NCBI GenBank assembly: GCA_951406725.2
Contig: OX597823.1
Coordinates: 37,200,001-37,264,000, forward strand
Direction: 5' to 3'
Source: Octopus vulgaris
Lineage: Eukaryota
Length of the DNA stretch: 64,000 nucleotides
Shown: positions 851 through 55,033 of the stretch, piece after piece
Numbering within the stretch: position 1 is the first letter of the stretch
Layout: each line of letters starts with the position of its first letter
Made by a program: the position numbers and the translations under genes
The notes under the pieces: model-generated
What the model was told of the DNA's origin: nothing
The model's database searches: none
The model's input: only the letters and a program-made list of their open reading frames with translations

Positions 851-1580
851 ATTTATTGTTTCTTGTCCACATATTCTGAAGAAATATAACAAGTAACTGC
901 AGAATATGTGGAGATGGACAAGAAACAATAAATCATATTATCTCTGGCTGCCCAGTCCTGGCTAAGAAGGAATATATTCACAGACATGACAGAGTTGGAA
1001 CCTACATACACTGGAAGCTATGGCAACATTATGGAATAACAACAGAAAAAAGATGGTATAGGCACACACCAGAAAAGGTCACAGAAAATGAGAAAGCAAC
1101 CATACTCTGGGATATGCCGATACACACAACCATACTCTGGGATATGCCGATACACACAGATAGAGAAATTAAGGCCAACAGACCAGATATAGTTGTCAGA
1201 GATAATGAAGAAAAAAAATGCTTTCTAATTGATGTATCAATACCGGCAGATGACAACGTGTCTCTAAAAGAAATGGAGAAACTTTCAAAATACAAAGACC
1301 TGAAAATAGAGGTAACTAGAATGTGGAATCTAAAAACAGGAACAATTTCTATCATAGTAGGTGCATTATGCATGATAAAAAAATATTCAGACAAATGCAT
1401 AACAAAAACACCAGGACTTACAAACACATATAACATACAGAAAATTGCACTACTAGGCACTACACACATCCTACGCAGAACACTTTCAATACAGTAACCA
1501 TCAGAGCATCACAACAAATCACAGCACATACCCAAGGCACACAGAGCTGCGCTCGGTAGTGTAGTGAAAGCACGTTATAA
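851..1580 (+). mobile_element. 5'-truncated R4/Dong-like LINE (CCHC knuckle + PD-(D/E)xK endonuclease)
   Basis: CRICGDGQETINHIISGC knuckle, RHD, ILWD, NRPDIVV...LIDVSIP, EKLSKYKDL, IIVGAL, QKIALLGTTHILRRTL (ORF 1114-1497 is part of it); 30-bp internal tandem duplication at ~1099-1158. Confidence 0.9.
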
Positions 1581-2551: not shown

Positions 2552-2850
2552 AATGAGATGTGGGAAGAGCCGTAAAATGCGACAACCGATGCAGATTTTG
2601 TGGAGTTAACGCTGAAAATGCCACCCATATCATAAGCACTGGTCCGAAAATGTCATCACGGTATAATCTACCGATGAGACGTGACGTTGTAGCTAGGACA
2701 TTCTCTAATGAGATCCATCGGAAGGATAATCCCGAGTACAAAGTGTTATATCGCACTTTCGGATGGCGTGCCTTCGCCAATAACGTACCTCTACTCAACT
2801 ACCGACTATTCGACTCAACAGAACGCGACGTCTAGTCTACCGACGGCTCC

Positions 2851-4550
2851 TGTTTCTTTATTATAACCACAAGTGCTCAAAATACAGGGGGACAAAGAAG
2901 GACAGACAGGACACCACAGAGGGGACAATACATAGAACGAATATGAGTGAAATGGTTATATAATAAGGAAATTATGAACGGCTGCTTGCGCCCCTCATCA
3001 CATGCGGTACCATTAATGTTGTTTACAGTCAATTATTACCGGATATTTAAATAACAATTAACTATCATGTAACATACCATTGCAAGTCACCAATCCGTGT
3101 ATTATCCGGCGTCCACATCGGATTCTTGACGTATTGTCTTTCCAATAAAACAATCTTATGACTCGCTATCCATTGACAGAGGTCTATCTGAAGGATAGTC
3201 CTTTATTAGCGGTATCACGTCATCCCAGTCGATTACTGGTTCCACCTTTTCAAACTCGACTTCAAACTGTACCATTTCCATATCGCACCTTTATTCCAAC
3301 TCCTCATAGCAGTTCGGTTCTATTATTATTGCTTTAGTCCCATCCTTGTCGTAATCCTTTTGGTACTCCACATAATACCATCTCTTCTTCGTCTAGTTTT
3401 CACTCCCTCCTTCATTCCTTTTTTTTTTCACCTCTCATCAACCTCACCTCCGGAGGAAAAACTTTCAAACTTTCCTCTTCTGTTTTTCTTGTCACCATTT
3501 TGTCTCGGTTACTTCCCACTGCCTCTTTTTTTCTTTTTCAACTTCTCCGGTGGAGAACCCCTTCTACCTTTTATTTTTCGCGGTTTCACCTCCACGAATT
3601 CCTCTTCTGTATCCACTGTTTCACTTCCTTCTCCACATCCCACCACGTTTGCCTCTCTATGCGTCGAACTCTCCTTCCTGTTTTTCCTTGCTTTGAGGAC
3701 AGTCCGCTTTTTTGTGTCCTCTTTTGCTACACAAAAAACATTTCAAAGGCCTGCCCTCTACCACCACATTCAGCTTGTATCCTTCGGGCAGTACTATTTC
3801 CTCAATTATGGAATTCAGATCTTCCAGGGTGGCTTGAATTTACATTTCCAGCCCGTATCACCCAGAAGTCTAACTTTTGAGTTCTTGTTGCCATTAATAT
3901 TGTCGGACTCTGTTTCATGTGGAACAAGACTGCCGCCATAATCCACGTCTCGTCGTATTCGGGTGGGATTTTACCCACCCTTACTCTGTCCATTCTTTTC
4001 CCGCAGTAACTCGGTAGGAAAGCCCACTCGTCATTCCTAATCGCGTTTACTGCATGCTCTGCTGCTACTTCTTCGGGTGCGAACCTGACTTCTACCATTT
4101 CGAACTTCTGACTTCTTGTTACAAAAGTCGTCAGGTGTTTAATATTTTTGAGTGTTTTTTCTATACTCGCAGTCGTTGAGGTTTCGATTTTTCCTGTGGA
4201 CAATCTTAAAGTCTTATACAGGACCGTTCTTTTTTGTAAACTTTCCAAAAATTTTTTTGGCGGTGCTGTTCCTTGATTCATTAACAATTTTCCACATTCT
4301 TCAATTCTGCCTGTTTCTACCTTTACTTTCTTCACTGTTAACGAGGCAGTATTGTTACTACCTGTTGCCGTCGCTGCATAGCTCTGGCTCGAGGTATTCA
4401 AATTCTCTATTATACAATTGAATAAAAAAAAACAGAAATATACAGGCACACCCGCTCAGGGAAAGCCTTCAATAATCAATCAGTAATAATTAATTCACAA
4501 TTAATTAACTTGTAACTCACAAAAATTAACTCGAACACTCTCTGACGGCT
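2851..4550 (-). mobile_element. ORF1-only (HAL1-like) Tx1/L1-derived retroelement, copy 1 (1700 bp, frameshifted)
   Basis: 15-bp TSD tctaccgacggctcc (2836-2850, 4551-4565); ORF1-like protein with SYAA, EVRF, LPSYCGKR..RVRVGKIPPE and knuckle CFLCSKRGHKKADC; AATAAA at the 3' end; no endonuclease or RT motifs seen. Confidence 0.8.
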
Positions 4551-4580
4551 TCTACCGACGGCTCCGACTCGCTCTACGCT

Positions 4581-6276
4581 TTCTCTTTATTATAGGCATA
4601 TAGCCTTCTTTATAGAATGGATATTACAAAGACAAACGTGGGGTATATAAAATGTTTAACGAATGAATTATAAAATGTGAAATTATGATAATGAAATGGC
4701 TTTCTACCCCCAAAGTAGAAAGCACCATTTTACTGTTTTTATACTTAATGCTTTTGTTCAGTATGTATTATATTTATATTGGATAAGGTATTAAGTCTGT
4801 ATACATTACCACTGGTGGCAATTCATCATATTGAAACCGCTTTCTTGTAATTTCCGCTCTGCTTCCAAATGTCACTTTTAGTCTTGCTGCTCTTTCGTTC
4901 TCAAGTAGCACTGCTTTCACAATACGGTTCTCTTCATTATCTACTAATTTCACTCTTATTACACCTTTCATTTTTGCTATACGCTTTTCCATTTCCACAC
5001 TTTTCTCGTACACCACAAACATTCGTTCATGTTTTCCTTTGCGTGGCTTTCTCGGCTGTATTTCTTCACTCTCTACTGGTGCTTCCATTTCTATTTGCTG
5101 TTCGTTTTCTTGTCTTTTCTGTCCTTCCTCCTCCTTACTCGTTGAAGGTTCCGGCTCTTGAGTTCGATTCTCCGTTGCTTCCTCATTTCTTCTTTTCTCT
5201 TTTTTCTTTTCCTCCGCCTTACTTTTTTTTTCGGGGGCGATTCGCTATTTCCTTTCTTCTCCACCAATGTGAACTCTATTTCCTTCTCCGATACTATATT
5301 CACTTCTATCTGATGCCCCTCCTCTACCACCTCTTGTTCGTGTTTCTGAGGACACTTTGCCTTCATGTGCCATCCCTACTCCCTATTGGAAGCATTATTG
5401 GTGGTCTACCCTCCACCATGACTCTCAGTCTGGTCTCATCGGGCAGGACTATCTCTTCTATCATTTTGTGGAGGTCAGGCAGCTGATAAGTACCATCACT
5501 TCTAGGCCATACCCCCACCAGTTCCTCCTCCTCCTCACTTCTAGGCCACACCCCCACCAGTTGACCTCCGCTGTCTTTGACATCTTTAACATCTCCGCCT
5601 TCTCCTCTGTATTGTAGAGGATGGCCGCCACAAGCCAGTCTTCGTCAATTTCGGGTGGCATTCTCCCTACCCTCACTCTGGCTGCGCCTCCGCCACAGCA
5701 AGTGGGCAAGAGTACCCACTGTGCCGGCCTCAAGGCTACGGTGGAGCACCTCCCCACTTCGTTCTCATTAACGAAGCGCACCTCCATCGCGCCAAACCCT
5801 CGTCCCCTGCTATAGAAAGTCGTCACTTCCGCAACTTCTCTCAAACACCCCTCCGCCTCCTCAATGCCTGCCACCTCAACCTTTCCCGTGTCTATGTTCA
5901 GCGCTCGGCAAGTGATCACTTTCCTTTCCGACCTCTCTGCTATTTCTTTGGGTGGTGCTAAACTCAAACACCCTCCTTCCCTCCTCAACAGGTCATCAAA
6001 ACTTTCTGCAATCAACATCCCTCACTTCCAGCTCCTGCACTCGCAGTAGCTCCGCTGTCAGGCCCCTGCCCGTCACCGCAGTACAACTGCCCGTCTGGGT
6101 CGCGCGTTCACAATTCTGCCATTCACAGCTTCACCCATAAATGAGGAAGCCAAACAAGACTTTCAATGAATTCAAAAAATTACAAATTCAACAATCACAA
6201 TTTCCACAATTCAGCAGTTCAGTTACACAAAGCAACAACTCACATGTGAGTGAGATCAAGACACAAAAAATCGGCC
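4581..6276 (-). mobile_element. ORF1-only (HAL1-like) Tx1/L1-derived retroelement, copy 2 (1696 bp, frameshifted)
   Basis: 9-bp TSD ctctacgct (4572-4580, 6277-6285); paralogous to copy 1 (EVRF, RVRVGRMPPE, IEEIVLP..VEGRP, ..GHMKAKC); AATAAA at the 3' end; 39-bp internal tandem duplication at ~5497-5562. Confidence 0.8.
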
Positions 6277-7045
6277 CTCTACGCTATGCTTCCCGTCTAG
6301 CTATCACGTCCACTGTTTATACGTATTAGATTAGTCTACTTATCGTCTGGGAGCGTCCATACAACACAAAGAAATAAGAATCCACAATATGGTAGAAGCC
6401 ATAGCCACTCATAATAAAAAAAGGAGCACTGGTGAAATGTACCAGTGAAGACCTCAATAAAATGTAAGCACAACAGGCCTGATATAATGATTTGGGACAG
6501 AGAAGAGAAACTGTGCACAGTTGTGGAAATTAGCTGCCCAGCAGATGTTAATGCAAAGCTGAAGATCAGTGAAAATGAGAATACCTACATTGAACTATTG
6601 AGAAATCCGCAGTCACTCTATCCAGATTACAAGTTCAGTTTTATAGCTGTAATTATTGGGGGCCTGGGATATGTAGAACACACTGCCTAAATACTAATCT
6701 TGAGAAATTAGGCTTCTCAAAACCAGAAAGATGAAAACTAATTCAAAGACTACAGATCCAATCCATTACTGGAACTGTAAAAATCAGTAAAATTTTCCAG
6801 GAGTTTACCATTTAAATATGTATGAGCATGTCTAGATATGCAACTATATGCATGAGAATACATACATAACATAAAACATACAAATCAGCACATACATACA
6901 TTCATACATACATACATACATACATACATACATACATACATACATACATACATACATACACAAACACACATACATACATACATACATACATACATACATA
7001 CATACATACATACATACATACATACATACATACATTAAAAAAAAA

Positions 7046-19766: not shown

Positions 19767-22700
19767 GAGGTCGCTCTTGAGCGCTACTGGTAACATGTAA
19801 CTGAATACAACCTGTGGCATGGGCGGGTCGTCGGCGACTAAAGTGACAACATCCAAGTTTGCTGAGGAGGGTGATTGTTGGACAGCCTGCAGGACGAAAA
19901 ATAAGACCTCACAAAGCAAAAACCCAATAGACATTCCCCTTCCCAATCCAAACCGCTCAGACCTTTCGAGTGCTGAGGTCGAGAAGTGATGGCGCACAGT
20001 CGCCACAAAAAAAAAAGATGAAGAAAAACTGCAGAACCATCAAAAGTGGGGAGGCGCAAGCAGGTCGAGCCACCCAACAGCAGTAATACTCACACACACA
20101 CAACAACCAACAACAGCACCAACACCAGCACCACTTTCACCAGCACTACCACCTCAAACACTGACAACAGTATAAACACCAACATACTCCACAAGCACTA
20201 CCAACCTCATAGCCATAGACACTAATAATGCAGAACTAATCACGCGCCTTAAAAATCACACAGACACTACCATGGAAAACTTTGTTTTCTCTATACACAA
20301 CGTACCATCACCATACATATAAATACTAAAAATAAGCGAAAACGTCTACAACACATTAAAAACACAATTCCTAGACGCTGTTATGTCGTTTCAAAAAGTT
20401 TTTTGCAAAAAGCTGTACAAAAGTCTACTCGTAGGAACACCTGCATCAAAGAATGTGGAGGCCATCCCACTACAAAACAGCGGTAAGTAACTCTTTCCTT
20501 AATTGTAATTTTTTTCTCAACATGGTCTTGCTCAAGATTGGTTGTTTAAATGCTCGGGGCCTCGAGTCACCTTGGAAACAAGGTCACCGACCTGAGGTCC
20601 CTTAGTGTAAACGTAGTAGCTATTAGTGAAACCAGACTTTCCGAACCGCAGGCCTTCATGACCCTCTTCGCTGGATACAAAATCTACCTATCTCTGTGTC
20701 TTCCGGGAGGGGGCGGTGATGGTACTGTAGTGCTTTTCCGGAAAGGTCTGGATTTGAAAATAAAAGCAATCTTACTGTATCCAGAAGGTAAGTTGGTGGT
20801 CCTGGATGTGAACAGCTGTGACTGCGCGCCTTCAGACTAGTGGCTGTCTATGGTCCGACTGAGGCAGGACGGCCGGATAACTTCAAGTGTCTGGAGGTTT
20901 TCCTGGGAATATCTCGAATTTTAGTGTTAGTAAGGGATTGGAACACTTAGATGGACGTTTCGATTGCGTGGGACTATCTGATAGGAGAGGGAGTGCAAAA
21001 GCCTCACAAACCTGCTCAGACATTTCCAACTGTCTGACAGGTAAAGACTAGAATACTTGAATGTGCCAATGTGTACTTGCACAAATCGCATCGGGTCATC
21101 TTGTTCGTATTTAGATAGAGTTTTTCCTGTAGGTTAGCGGATAAGGATAGCATAGGTTGTTCACATTTTCACATGGTCGGCAACACAGACCACAAATTCA
21201 TGATCTGTACGGTCAACCTAGATATGCTTCGTAGACAGGGCCCCGGTTACTGGAAGCTCAACATGTCGTTACCGGCGTGCCAAGCTTACAGTAACTGGAT
21301 TAGCGTATTAGTTAAGAGGACGTTGACGGGGGAAATCGGCAACAACAACTGGTGGTTTGTTCTTAAAAGGGCAATTAGAGTAGAATCCATTAGGTTTAGT
21401 AAGGCTTTAGCGGTAGAAAGAAATAGAATAGAGTGAGATTTAGTTAGAAAGTTAGATGAGGCACTTAGGAAAGGCATCGCAACTGACGTATTGGTGGCAA
21501 GGTTGGTCCTCGAACAATTTTTCGGCGCCATACACGAAGGCTCTGTTGTTAGAGCTAAGGCACGTTCACTAAGCGGAAAGGGAACGAAAGCTGCTCGATG
21601 GAACTTAGTGGTGGATGCAAAATGTGGCAACACTGCTACCATTCGGCCTTTGGTAGACAAGAACGGACGCGATATGTTTGAACCGAAGCAGATGTGTGCG
21701 GCTTTTCAACAGCACTTTGCTCGACTGTTCGGGACGAGTGGTAGAACAGGTAAGAGGGCAGATTTCGGTGTCTACCTGGACGGCCTACCGTTACTCTCAG
21801 CGAGCGAGTTGAAGCGCTGCGAAAGGCCGATAACAGCCGCGGAAATATAGGAAGCGATGAAGTGCTGCACGAGAGGCAGATCGTCGGGATTGGATGGTCT
21901 GCGCTACGAACTTTATATTTCGATGCCAGACTTGTTTGGAGGCATCTTAGCAAATATCTACAGAAACTAGCAGCAGAATGGGAGAATTCCCAGTTTTGTC
22001 TATCGAGGGATGGCGGCACTGCTAAGAAAGGACCAAAACAAGGGAGACATTATACAAAATTTCAGGTCCATCACTCTGCTCAATGCAGAGTTGAAGATTT
22101 TGGCCAAGGTGTTAGCCAAGAGGTTGGCGCTTGTTGTGGACAAGCTGATTGACGAGGCGCAACCATGCGCCATCCCGACCAGACTATTCGCGACAACCTC
22201 CACCTCATGCGCTGCATCATAGAGAAGATGGGTAACGAAGCTGGCATGGGTGGGGATCTGATCAATTTAGATCAATCTAAAGCCTTCGATAGGGTCGACC
22301 ACCAATATTTGGCGGCTGTTCTCGCGGCAGCCGGTTCAGTTTTCCGCGTTGGATCACTGTCGAAACAGCGTCGTTGGGCGCTGGACAGACGGTCTAGTTA
22401 AATTACTCGGGGTCTGGTTCGGTCCAGATTTCCAGGTAGAGAAAGACAAAGAGAAGGTGACGAACAGGATAGCCAATCTCACCTAGAAATGGGCCGAGAG
22501 GAAGCTGTCCCTGAAAGGTCGAGCCGAGGTGGCGAATGCGTACGTCACATCCATCTTCTATTACTGCTTGACCGTCGTCTCTAGCTCTTTATTTTAACTG
22601 AATAAGCTAGTCCGCATTATCTTCGGCTTTTTGTGGAGGAGTCATGTTCTGCTGGTAAGGCGCTCCATCTGCTGTCAACAGCCGCTGAATGGGGTCCTAA

Positions 22701-23450
22701 ACATGCTGTGATTGCTGATACGCAGAGATGCGCTCAGGCTACATCTCCAGCGTTTCCTTGACGGTGAGTAGGTGTGGTCACCGTTTGTTAGACTCGCTCT
22801 CCCACAACTCGTCTCTTTGACTGAGCTTCAATCCTGGATTAGGCACAAACCTATGAGGGGCGCTTGTCACCTCGAGTGCCATCAAGCGCTCACAATCCTC
22901 CGCCAGGCGAGCAATGCGGTCGGTGGTAGTTCTACTCTAGCGTTCTATAGAGGGTTAAAGGAGAAAAAGTAAGACGACGTTCTCGGGGAAACTCTGGGTG
23001 TCGATGAAGATGAACTCACCAGCCTGCTCCGGAGGACTTTCGGGACGGAGCCTATGGATAACTTCCAGAAATTCCTCGCCTGGTCGTTCTACCGAGGGGT
23101 GCTGCCCGTTCGGGATAAATTTTACAGGCACGGAAGTGCCGTCAGCCGGAACTACTCGAGATGTACGCAGACGGACGAAACCGTTCTACACGCACTCGTC
23201 CTGTGCCCGAGGATTGCTGACCTGCGGGTTTATGTCGAACACCTGCTGTCGCCTGTGGGGCGTATCCGGCTATCAGCTGAATCCATAGTGAAGGTTTCCC
23301 CGCCATCTTCCTTTGGTCGGGAGGGGCAGGCAAATTTTATTTGTCTAGCGGCTGTAGCAAATGAGGGAGTATGGTGGACATGTTTGAAGGGGCTAAAGAC
23401 AGACACTTTCCTCTTTGGCCAAGGCCTCATAAACGCGGCCATTCTTTTTT
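19767..23450 (+). mobile_element. Decayed Tx1/L1-clade LINE (ORF1 remnant, APE endonuclease, partial RT, C-terminal Cys/His domain)
   Basis: ORF2 starts MVLLKIGCLNARGL at 20522; AISETRL, SYLDRV, TDHK, GPGYWKLN; NFRSITLLNAELKILAKVLAKRL; DQSKAFDRVDH; RCTQTDETVLHALVLCP; many stops and frameshifts; YADD region deleted near 22360. Confidence 0.92.
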
Positions 23451-23689
23451 CTTAAGCAGGATGGGAACGGTTTCGCAATAGCGTGTCGGAAAATAGGAAA
23501 ATTCGAGTTGAATGACGCTAAGGTGCATTTAACAAAGACTGGTAGAACAGCTTTCATTAACACACCGGAAGAAGTGCAAGAAGACACTAAGAAGAAAATC
23601 ATTATATATAAATGTATATAATTAAAGACGAGGAGCATGCACAGGTAACACACCCGAGAAAAAGTAAAACACCTACACCACCGTAATCT

Positions 23690-23915
23690 CGAGAAGTCTC
23701 GCTCACACCACTCTAACAGACCACTTGCCTAGAAAGACTAGCTCATCACTCCATCCAAGTTCTTGTCCACCTGGAGATCTGGAACAAACCAAATCCCGAG
23801 CAATTAAACTCGTTCGTCCGTATAGCGCTCTACGACAGTTGGATTGCATAAACTTGCTTCTCCGGGTGCTGAGCGGCAAGCTAAAGAAATTCTAGTTAAT
23901 TTTGGCTCCTGACTA
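23690..23915 (-). mobile_element. Tx1 ORF2 fragment
   Basis: GAKIN...LLGIWFVPDLQVDKN, homologous to the post-RT region of the other two Tx1 copies. Confidence 0.6.
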
Positions 23916-51519: not shown

Positions 51520-51603
<84 letters not shown>

Positions 51604-54600
51604 TCTTGCTTTAACTGGCCACAAGGGCCGAACACAAAAACATATAGGGACGATATAAAACAAGGGACAAGCGAGGTGTAAAACAGAAATCGTGTAGACA
51701 ATAAAAAGCAAAAATAGTTAACAAAAAATCTAACACCAAAATTCCTCAATCGGGGAGGGGTTCCACCCAGGACCAACCAGGGCATCCCACACATCCTGGT
51801 CACCCCGACTGCCAATGGCACGCCAAGTAGGCACTCCTCTTCCCTTCAACTGCCCCGGGTTACAGGCGAACATTCAGAATAACCCCTTTCAGACGAGCCA
51901 TTTTCGCAACATTCACCCACTTTTCAACAAAATTACTGGAGGAGCAGTACTTCTCTCTCTACTCTCACTTTCCTTTTCAAGTTCCACTTAAAAAAGCCGA
52001 TGAGGACTCGACCGAATATGAAAGTGTCTGTCTTCAGTTCTTTCAGCCACACTACCTCTTTCGCTATAGCCACCAGACAGAGAAAAACTGCCTTTCCCTC
52101 CCGGCTAAAAGAAAGCGGCGGGGCAATCCTCCAGATGGACTCAATTAAGAACCGGATCCGTTCTACACGAGACATCAGGTGTTAGACAAAGCTCCACAAG
52201 TCAGTAATGGACGAGTGCACGCAGAACAGTTTTATCACCCTGCGCACACCTCGGACAGGTCTGTCTAACAGCACTTCTGTGTCTGTACAGCTTTCTCGAA
52301 ACCGACAGAGCTCCCCAGAGATTTCTGGAAATTGTCCAAAGCCCGAGATTTCTGGAAATTGTCCAAAGCCCGAGCCCGAAAGTCCTCCCGAAAAGAGCAA
52401 TTAACTGATCCCTCCCGACGCCCAGACTTTCCCTGAAAATGTCGTCGTTCTTGTCTGCCACTAATCCCTAATAGAACTCTATAGCGGAACATCTACCGAC
52501 CGCGTTGCCCGACTGGTAGAAAGCTATGAGCGCTTGCCTATACTCCAGGTACCAAGTGCCCTTTCTTTGTCTACGTTTGACCCAGGTCTGTAGCTCCATC
52601 AATGAGACGAGCTGTGGAAAATCCCGTTTGATGAACGGTGACCACACCTGCCCACCGCTAAGAAAAAAGCTAGAGATGTCGCAGCCTCAACATAAGTCTG
52701 TGCATCGTTTGCCACGACATGCCCAGTCCTCCACTTAGCAAATGGACCGTCTGACGAAGAGAATACACCCGTTCCACAGAAATTGAACGAGTAAGCACAC
52801 CAGCTTGATCAGCCACAAAGTGGAGCAAAGGACGACAGCCAGGTGGTAGTAGATGACAGAAGCGATGTACGCACTTGCCACCTCTGCCCGACCCTTCAAG
52901 GACAGCTTCTTCTCTGCCCATTTCTGGATGAGATTGGTTACCCTGCTCGTCACCTACTCTCAGTACTTGTCCACCTGGGGGCCGGGGCCAAACCGGACCT
53001 CGAGCAATTTAACCGGTCCTTCTGTCCGACGCCCGACAACGTTGTTGGTTGGCATGGACTTGCCTCTCCAGGTGCCAAGCTGCAGGCCTAGCGACTTCTG
53101 GTTAATCTTTGCTCCTGTCACTGCTTCGTACTCCCTTAGGGCAGTACCGACCACCTCGATTTCCGAGATGTCTAACACTATTACAGTAACCTCGTCCGCA
53201 TAAGCCGACACGAACTGTCCTAGATGCCCCTCGAAACATCCAGCTTCCGCAGCAATGGCTCTAGAGCCAGTGCGTACAGAAGAGGTGAGAGTGGACATCT
53301 TTCTCAACAGCACCACCTCTCCAAGACTCACAGCACTGGGAATTCCCCCGTTCTGCTGCCAGTTTTGGTAGAGATCTGTCAAGAGATCACCGAACAAGCC
53401 TAGCATATGAAGATAAAGCTCGAAGGGCTGACCATCCCGACCCAGAGACTTCTCTCTTGCGCAGCTCGTCATCGCGTCCCGTATATCTTCGGCTGTTATT
53501 GACATTTCGCAGAACTCTGTATCCCTGGCTGAGAGGTTCGGCGTGCCACGGAGATAAAATCCATCTCCATCCCAGGACCACCGCACGCCCCATACAGTTC
53601 GGTGAAGTGTCGCTGAAATTCCGCACACATGTCGGAATAACTCGGTTATCATGCACTTCTCACAGCTTTTCAGGTGTTGGTGTAGGTTCATTTGTTTACT
53701 TTTTCTTTTGTTACGTTTTTGTTTTTGCTTTGTAAGGTTCGTCCTCATCTTCACTACAAGTTGAGGAGGGACTAGTGTCTGTAAGATCTGTCTTGGGGAG
53801 TGTGAGTGTGTTTGTGATAGTGTAAGAGTGTTTGTGTGAGTGTATGCTTGAGAGGAGGTGAGGGAGCTGGTTTGAGAGACACCCTGGGTGGTTTGTTCCA
53901 TTGTATGGGGCTCACGTGCCTCTGTCGTTGTTAGAGATGAGGCTACAGTTTTGTTAAAAATCTCTGTTGTTGCTGTTGTTGGGGATGTAATGTAGGCTGC
54001 ACGTGCAGCCATGCACCTCCCAACTTTTGTGGAGCAGAGGGCTCTCAAGTGACTTGTGGCCCTACAGATATCGCATCTGGGCTTCCAGCCGTTCACAACG
54101 AACTGCAGTTCCACCTCTTTGGAGCAGCTGGATCAGGTCCGGGGTGTTCTTGATATTTTCTGGTCTTACATGGATTAATATTTCCATATTTATCCCAAAC
54201 GCGTCTCCCTGCTGCTCCTTTTTACCTCCAAGAATTACTCTGGATCTTGCACACAAGCTACAATCCACCAGACGTTATCCTAACCTTAATCGTTCTCTTT
54301 GAGAGGTAGGTGGGATACAGGACCCACTCTTCAGTCCACCGGGGTGACATTGCGTGTCTTCGCGTGAGGTCCTTACTTTTAACGAGGACCTTGATGCTGG
54401 CGAACTGCGTCCCTCTCTGTATATGGGACCACATCTATTAAAATTACTTTTAGGGCTTTCTCAACGTGACTGATGGAGGTGATTTCTGCTTGATAGGCAT
54501 CTAAAAATAGACGGTCTTTTTTTCTGTTGTCGCTATTATTTCGGGAGGTATGAGCACTGCTGCTGTCACTGCTACTACTGCTGTCACTGCTACTACTGCT

Positions 54601-55033
54601 GTTGTCGATGCTACCACTGCTGCTGCTACTGCTACCGCCTTCATTGTTGCTGATGCGAGGTGAACTTTGTACATTTTCCCCCTGTTTTCTCCACTCCTTC
54701 TCCTGTATTATTGTTGTCAGTAAAAGAGGAAAGAGGATGGAAAGCTTCGGCAGTCAATAGACCTGCAGGAGGGGCAGTTTTCTTTCGTAACTCTTTCAAG
54801 ATAGGCGCCACCATCTTGTTGAATTTTATATGATTAAACGCCGAATGACTTATTTGTGTGGGGCGGGGGACGACTATAGCTCTGCGTGGGGCCAAATAAA
54901 CATAGAAACCTAGTGACAGGTTCCTGTTGTTTCTATTGATAACTTTGAACAAAATTATAACAGAAAAAAGCGGCACCAAACGGGTGTGCCTTACTTCGAG
55001 CGTTTGAAAACACGTCCGATGTACTCCGCAGCA
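51604..55033 (-). mobile_element. Internally deleted Tx1/L1-clade LINE with both ends, inserted in (AAT)n
   Basis: ORF1: EEWVLYPTYLSKRTIKVRI and knuckle CDICRATSHLRALC; ORF2 pieces KSLGRDGQPFELY, SAYADEVTV, TGAKIN, WAEKKLSLKGRAEVA, CPRCAQGDKTVLRAL; (AAT)n at 51521-51603 and from 55034. Confidence 0.9.

Follow-up and report, generated by a model that had tools for sequence, protein, structure and literature searches.

Long interspersed nuclear elements (LINEs) that have kept only their first open reading frame (ORF1) are an established kind of retroelement, HAL1 having derived from L1, HeT-A from Jockey and Ag-Sponge from CR1 (PMC5786205, PMC5753468). Among Tx1 LINEs, Tx1L inserts into Tx1D, Keno into U2 and Kibi and Koshi into microsatellites, the crocodilian elements Tx1-8_Crp and Tx1-4_AMi target long terminal repeat (LTR) elements, and transcription driven from the flank has been proposed for SINEU (PMC4494074). 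HeT-A Gag carries out targeting (PMC5537684), and the ORF1 protein (ORF1p) of TRE5-A interacts with TBP, Brf1 and Bdp1 (PMC5911963). In coleoid cephalopods, the L1-Tx1 group is reported to have expanded (PMC8967140). Here we describe two ORF1-only elements, E1 (2851..4550, 1700 bp) and E2 (4581..6276, 1696 bp), both on the minus strand of a 64,000-nucleotide stretch of the Octopus vulgaris genome (assembly GCA_951406725.2, contig OX597823.1, positions 37,200,001 to 37,264,000), referred to below as the window.

E1 and E2 are almost certainly full-length, decayed copies of two ORF1-only families that belong to an old octopod lineage, and the interpretation put forward in the initial annotation, which read them as members of such a lineage, is as a whole supported. 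The pattern of insertion sites, which that annotation overlooked, is the more interesting part. Taking both together, we consider it quite likely that these families borrow their enzymes from Tx1-type relatives by means of the 3' tail and insert in sense orientation at or below transcription starts.

Copies, ORF1 protein and descent of the families

Both families are represented by multiple copies of about 1.7 kb with identical ends. A search of the genome at the DNA level, in which 40 of 306 candidates were scored for E1 and 40 of 277 for E2, returned at least 10 other loci with both ends for E1 and at least 8 for E2, at ~70-87% identity, and target-site duplications (TSDs) are present in many copies. 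The ORF1s of E1 and E2 are 34% identical over 135 aa and each has its own set of copies, in line with the proposal that these are strongly diverged, separate families sharing one architecture. A third family has its last 237 bp in common with E1 and a similar ORF1 upstream. A protein-level search of the genome (42,284 first-look candidates, 149 of them scored) yielded young copies whose ORF1 is intact, measures 443-463 aa from the first Met and stops 150-320 nt before the tail; these copies often form head-to-tail arrays with units of ~1.8 kb. Counted in fetched, partly overlapping loci, 219 matches to the ORF1 core comprise 101 ORF1-only, 58 autonomous, 3 mixed and 57 undecided cases; the label of L190 in this count is an error, put right in the tree described below.

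As to copies that run on into an apurinic endonuclease (APE) and reverse transcriptase (RT), same-strand ORF2 remnants lacking the endonuclease were found downstream at two loci (L123/L192 and L044), neither of which is a complete element. At the first of these, in a chimera (L192:5705-8020), an ORF1 of this clade breaks off within its C-terminal domain and continues as the 3' half of an ORF2.

The initial annotation assigned one ORF1-like frame to each element; the homology to ORF1 holds, but the single open frame does not, given that both ORF1s are frameshifted and that mapping onto intact relatives resolves at least four frame pieces in each. In E1 the N-terminal part and the RNA recognition motif (RRM)-like core, a fold predicted from the model of an intact relative, occupy 3862..4392 (minus strand) and are 31-33% identical to intact young ORF1s (E 1e-34 or lower). 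The zinc knuckle of the CCHC type (CX2CX4HX4C, 3699..3740, minus strand; PF00098 in relatives) is intact, and the C-terminal domain (3162..3422, minus strand), located by tblastn with the natural frame of copy L002 and by alignment, is broken in the window copy. A segment of ~55-65 bp that most other copies carry is missing from the window E1 at element position 1192. The ORF1 of E2 spans 4777..6118 (minus strand), with its C-terminal domain at ~4795-5078 and a frameshifted knuckle, the decay of the knuckle being confined to this second copy, as had been noted. The reported homology to the ORF1 of a Tx1-like LINE in the window is real but short (27% identity over 49 aa at 54276-54422; E 2e-6 when searched against its 1.4-kb stretch).

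A model of an intact relative built from a 58-row alignment (predicted local distance difference test score, pLDDT, 79.6; a single-sequence fold with pLDDT 37 was discarded) shows two RRM-like domains at residues 48-137 and 136-220 (best Z 8.9, close to the level common for such folds, with rmsd 3.0 over 82 aligned residues). These are followed by the CCHC knuckle (222-237), a disordered charged linker and a predicted folded domain at ~326-440. When E1, E2 and the young families are aligned over this C-terminal domain, six residues are invariant. It was undetected in the C-termini of three autonomous ORF1s and of a second ORF1-only group, and no convincing match to it was obtained in Pfam, PDB sequences or the ESM Atlas.

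ORF1 is under purifying selection. The ratio of nonsynonymous to synonymous changes among variants present in at least three copies is 0.23-0.24 for E1 (16-18 copies) and 0.18-0.20 for E2 and its close relatives (29-52 copies), and among singletons it is 0.64-1.33. A stop is never the commonest codon of a column in the E1 and E2 ORF1 alignments, and pairs of intact young copies give dN/dS values of 0.08-0.25 for the core (13 of 15 pairs with measurable dS).

In a tree of 36 rows picked from 83, with long branches excluded, 24 rows split from all nine autonomous rows with support of 100/99, and E1, E2 and the young families are among these 24. This clade consists of 22 ORF1-only rows, one chimera and one unlabelled row, no autonomous row being sampled within it. 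The second ORF1-only group is nested among the autonomous rows, and the ORF1-only state therefore has at least two origins. The ORF1 is 28-35% identical to an autonomous ORF1, pieces of the RRM core matching at E 1e-23 or lower. With an intact ORF1 as query, HMMER found 413 relatives at E 0.001 or lower and a word-index protein search found none; of ten relatives looked up, eight had names, and these come from Octopus bimaculoides, O. sinensis, O. vulgaris and Argonauta hians.

Autonomous elements have the same 3' tail, as judged by eye, and lie in the same insertion nests as the ORF1-only copies. Autonomous family A encodes an ORF2 of 1145 aa in which PF03372 (APE), PF00078 (RT) and PF13966 (zf-RVT) score over the cut-off; PF00098 falls just under it in the ORF1 of family B. 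This layout, an ORF2 with APE, RT and zf-RVT and an ORF1 with CCHC, fits Tx1 and is also common to other L1-group elements, and no clade name was attached to any of the 120 best RT relatives listed. Family A is very young and forms 5.87-kb tandem arrays with intact ORF2 within (TTA)n (G000:C4:93.80-93.84 Mb and many other loci). Copies, selection and clade thus bear out the earlier suggestion of a non-autonomous lineage with its own ORF1, which presumably borrows ORF2.

The tail of E1 resembles those of autonomous relatives and of an abundant short interspersed element (SINE). The SINE-like repeat, seen at L157:2791-3229 (minus strand) and downstream of the insertion at L305, ends in nearly the tail of E1, GTCTGTCCTTG...GCCCCTTGTGG..AATAAAGAAA, and because the tails are so nearly alike it may use the same machinery as E1. 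A structured 3' tail was unsupported in five of five cases (z -1.2 to +0.7). A young relative is covered by contigs from four runs that were taken, as a guess, to be RNA; these contigs are uninformative on start or level. For the window stretch itself no RNA dataset was listed.

Insertion sites relative to TATA boxes and transcription starts

Both elements interrupt one solo LTR (2744-6366, TSD CAAAG), whose TATAAA box (6316..6321, minus strand) is kept in empty copies and probably acts as a promoter. Counted from the first T of this box, E1 lies 51 nt downstream, at LTR position 98, and the TSD of E2 starts 36 nt downstream in the window copy, the site of the family being at about LTR position 77-84. 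Since the box begins at LTR position 47, the hot spots fall at +30 and +51. This LTR family has at least 40 loci, of which 30 were fetched: 23 are whole, 6 interrupted and 1 was not classed. Among the whole loci, nine have a TSD of 5-6 bp, three a primer-binding site (PBS) and five a polypurine tract. The six interruptions all lie at LTR positions 77-99, and each is made by a same-sense AATAAA tail.

Beyond this LTR, TATA boxes are enriched ~25-35 nt upstream of the TSD. Across the lineage, 8 of 23 target clusters have TATAWA at -40..-20 relative to the TSD (mean of shuffles 0.8, maximum 5 of 2000), compared with 0-4 clusters in control windows; when autonomous copies were included in a second pass, the result was 6 of 18 clusters, with 0 of 17 on the opposite strand. 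For one young family, a TATA-like box precedes the outermost full-length copies in five of six unrelated target clusters, or at 19 of 22 sites (shuffles 0.4, maximum 3 of 3000). A young truncated copy (L305, G000:C2:182.998-183.000 Mb) sits 30 nt below a TATAAA, at a site with one genomic match; the target there runs 43 nt more to a donor-like GTATGT and is possibly the first exon of a host gene. The TSD of family B begins 3 nt before +1 of a U2 small nuclear RNA (snRNA) gene (Rfam 184 bits), an element directly at U2 +1 being present at 1 of 30 U2 loci, where it is autonomous. Family B copies at the extreme 5' end of U2 genes can be seen at L246:6664-6857 and G000:C3:20.80-20.83 Mb. In two copies (L209 and L008) the 5' end includes sequence from the target site of a different locus, which is what a parent transcript starting in the flank would leave behind.

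Several arrays of 10-20 kb mix ORF1-only and autonomous copies (L141/L142/L312, L148-L150, L303-L317). They begin ~30 nt downstream of a TATAAAG that is itself part of the sequence coding for ORF1 in another Tx1-like element. Family B, like several ORF1-only families, inserts mainly into a tandem repeat (L144, L152, L156, L159, L231-L250). Upstream this repeat has a CAGTG...TCACTG motif like that upstream of U2 genes, and it shows hammerhead-like motifs by eye; Rfam detected no hammerhead in it.

Two simpler descriptions of the targets were dropped. That all of them are LTRs was abandoned after a test for LTR borders around all targets gave 1 of 40, against 1-6 in mismatched pairs; LTR identity is established for the window family and was recognised by eye for a few others (L038, with a PBS; L155, beside a protease-RT reading frame). 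That the ORF1-only copies have targets differing from those of all autonomous partners, which would seat targeting in ORF1, was rejected because autonomous families B and C occupy the same nests.

We regard homing of the lineage to start sites as fairly likely. The ORF1-only RNA would be transcribed from the flanking promoter of the target repeat, the TATA-like boxes serving as working promoters with read-in transcription, and would be coated by its own ORF1p. The ORF2p of a relative would then recognise this RNA through the 3' tail and, by target-primed reverse transcription in trans, copy it in sense orientation where the DNA is nicked close to, or at, a further start site; the nests shared with autonomous elements speak indirectly for such mobilisation in trans. 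Position, and not sequence alone, would pick the site, either through tethering to the pre-initiation complex or through nicking of an opened promoter. Later insertions hit the 5' end of earlier copies and build up the head-to-tail arrays. A bolder version, in which the whole octopod lineage homes by position through a pre-initiation complex containing TBP, to Pol II and snRNA starts and occasionally to those of host genes, is offered tentatively and seems rather doubtful. In this version the ORF1-only members, having lasted while they diverged to ~30% identity with RT and promoter both borrowed, would retain ORF1, with its lineage-specific C-terminal domain, for homing or packaging. A complex prediction for the intact ORF1 with a TBP core (98% identical to the TBP exon of this genome) scored 0.00 and gave no answer.

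A number of observations weigh against homing to start sites. For E1 and E2 alone, the strict TATA motif is found in 3 of 14 clusters (shuffles mean 0.64, maximum 5) and equally in 3 of 14 in the next window upstream; the relaxed motif gives 6 of 14 (mean 2.4, maximum 8) and 5 of 14, respectively. The E1 site in this LTR is at +51 and not at +30 at three loci, the nest at L157 starts ~17 nt below its TATA, and one of the six strict matches of the second pass is a TA microsatellite. Both automatic passes contain mis-called TSDs, and the motif sets and windows were picked after inspection of the data. Each family has some sequence preference at the nick, and the commonest young autonomous family, A, whose tail is near that of E1, inserts in (TTA)n microsatellites; no autonomous partner is pinned to E1 or to E2. 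The only start that was located is U2 +1, by the Rfam model, the other starts being predicted.

The main rival, which we judge unlikely, accepts the ORF1-only families and has ordinary sequence-specific Tx1 endonucleases picking the sites with no positional tethering: each partner would recognise a short motif of its own within some multicopy repeat, and these motifs would lie near starts through an initiator-like sequence or through favoured capture of promoters. Sequence specificity for transposons, LTR elements and U2 is indeed documented among Tx1 families (PMC4494074), U2 and the main target of family B both show TT(C/T)ATCG where this family nicks them, E1 reuses GGAGCCGTCGG at +51, and the TATA signal of E1 and E2 by themselves is weak. 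Such endonucleases would not readily account for a single young family that occupies six unrelated target sequences, five of them with a TATA box at a similar distance, nor for a seventh, apparently single-copy site at -30, nor for a target that is a TATA-like run within the ORF1 coding region of another element.

It is improbable that the clustering below TATA boxes reflects a few insertions co-amplified with host repeats such as LTR elements and tandem repeats. The order E2-then-E1 does recur in the same LTR family at C12:46.70 Mb, and two target families make up 17 of the 22 young-family sites; against this, the counts were collapsed to unrelated target clusters, nests at one target vary in order and content, and 23 of the 30 LTR loci are whole and empty. 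Least credible is that E1 and E2 each arose by a single internal deletion in an autonomous Tx1 copy and never propagated in ORF1-only form, for although internally deleted autonomous copies exist, such as window 51590-54830 without its endonuclease, and L123/L192 joins a clade ORF1 to the 3' half of an ORF2, this is refuted by the many copies with identical ends and TSDs, barring an unsampled autonomous source with the same ORF1 and C-terminal domain, and is opposed too by a clade devoid of any autonomous row and by a C-terminal domain found clade-wide and undetected in four other ORF1 C-termini.

Nesting of E1 and E2 and neighbouring repeats

The solo LTR, of ~218 bp, is divided by the two elements into three parts on the minus strand. 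Its 5' part (6277..6366) begins TGTTGT..., a 30-bp piece (4551..4580) separates E1 from E2, and its 3' part (2744..2850) ends ...ATAACA. The middle piece carries the 5' TSD of E1 and the 3' TSD of E2. The TSD of E1 is an exact 15-bp repeat, TCTACCGACGGCTCC, with its 3' copy at 2836-2850 and its 5' copy at 4551-4565, and that of E2 an exact 9-bp repeat, CTCTACGCT, at 4572-4580 (3') and 6277-6285 (5'), both given on the minus strand. An AATAAA closes each tail (2857..2862 in E1 and 4586..4591 in E2, minus strand). Coordinates, strand, lengths, TSDs and tail ends all agree with the initial annotation.

The LTR is flanked in turn by its own 5-bp TSD, CAAAG (left copy 2739..2743, plus strand; right copy 6367-6371), and interrupts an outer host, presumably a LINE with a restriction-like endonuclease, a class that we recognised by eye from its motifs. 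The left part of this host (2560..2743, plus strand; frame 2557-2835) is a LINE fragment with a CxxC...H..S region, and the right part (6367..6690, plus strand; frame 6436-6690) comprises the LTR TSD and a PD...D/ExK-like endonuclease region of the same LINE. A second fragment of a LINE of this class, likewise assigned by eye, lies at window 880-1497 (plus strand).

Two further Tx1-like elements are present in the window. The copy at 51590-54830 (minus strand), which lacks the endonuclease region, has (TTA)n-type flanks and a tail near that of E1, and a decayed autonomous element at 20206-23839 (plus strand) has an ORF2 ~62-67% identical to that of young family A.

Comparison with known systems

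Mammalian L1 ORF1p is laid out as a coiled coil, one RRM and a C-terminal domain. The octopus ORF1 differs from that of HAL1 elements in its two predicted RRM-like domains, its CCHC knuckle and a C-terminal domain of its own, a predicted layout that departs from that of mammalian L1 ORF1p. We do not file the octopus families as HAL1 proper. The likeness is that mammalian HAL1 is non-autonomous, encodes ORF1p only and arose more than once (PMC5753468, PMC5786205), two origins being found here too. HAL1 comes from the L1 clade, whereas the octopus donors are Tx1-like and insertion is site-biased; the cited accounts of HAL1 mention no target preference (PMC5753468, PMC5786205).

Compared with target-specific Tx1 elements and SINEU, the octopus riders encode a protein under purifying selection, and one octopus family is found in several unrelated targets at a similar distance from a TATA box. 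The insertion of Keno lies inside U2, in contrast to the octopus site at +1. Common to all of them are insertion into transposons, LTR elements, U2 and microsatellites and the presence of non-autonomous riders on the same target (PMC4494074).

HeT-A and TART of Drosophila likewise combine an element that encodes Gag alone with a partner that carries RT, in arrays that run head to tail in one direction and have their promoter upstream (PMC5537684). They belong to the Jockey clade, are telomeric and have their promoter in the 3' untranslated region of the neighbour, whereas the octopus arrays lie in internal positions and have a foreign TATA box upstream of their start, and any part of the octopus ORF1 in targeting is putative. 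In Dictyostelium TRE5-A and yeast Ty3, too, the position of integration is set by the transcription machinery (PMC5911963). Their targets are Pol III genes, TRE5-A inserting 44-54 bp upstream and in antisense (PMC5911963); the octopus elements insert in sense, at the point where TATA or snRNA-type promoters start or downstream of it, and any tethering is at present a conjecture.

Searches of the full-text literature showed no Tx1-derived ORF1-only family in cephalopods, within a scope that leaves aside subscription papers, supplements, Repbase and Dfam, which may contain such families; nor did they yield a non-LTR element homing below TATA boxes, subscription papers and supplements again being outside their scope. 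With young intact copies and candidate partners in one genome, it becomes testable why half-LINEs retain ORF1 when SINEs manage without it. If distance from a promoter does set insertion, this would be a further targeting rule for non-LTR elements beyond endonuclease specificity and tRNA-gene tethering, and the elements would be disabling host LTR elements and U2 copies and seizing their promoters, a hyperparasitism in a repeat-rich cephalopod genome. What is known already is the ORF1-only kind of LINE; what is new is a Tx1-type version of it with a probable start-site targeting pattern.

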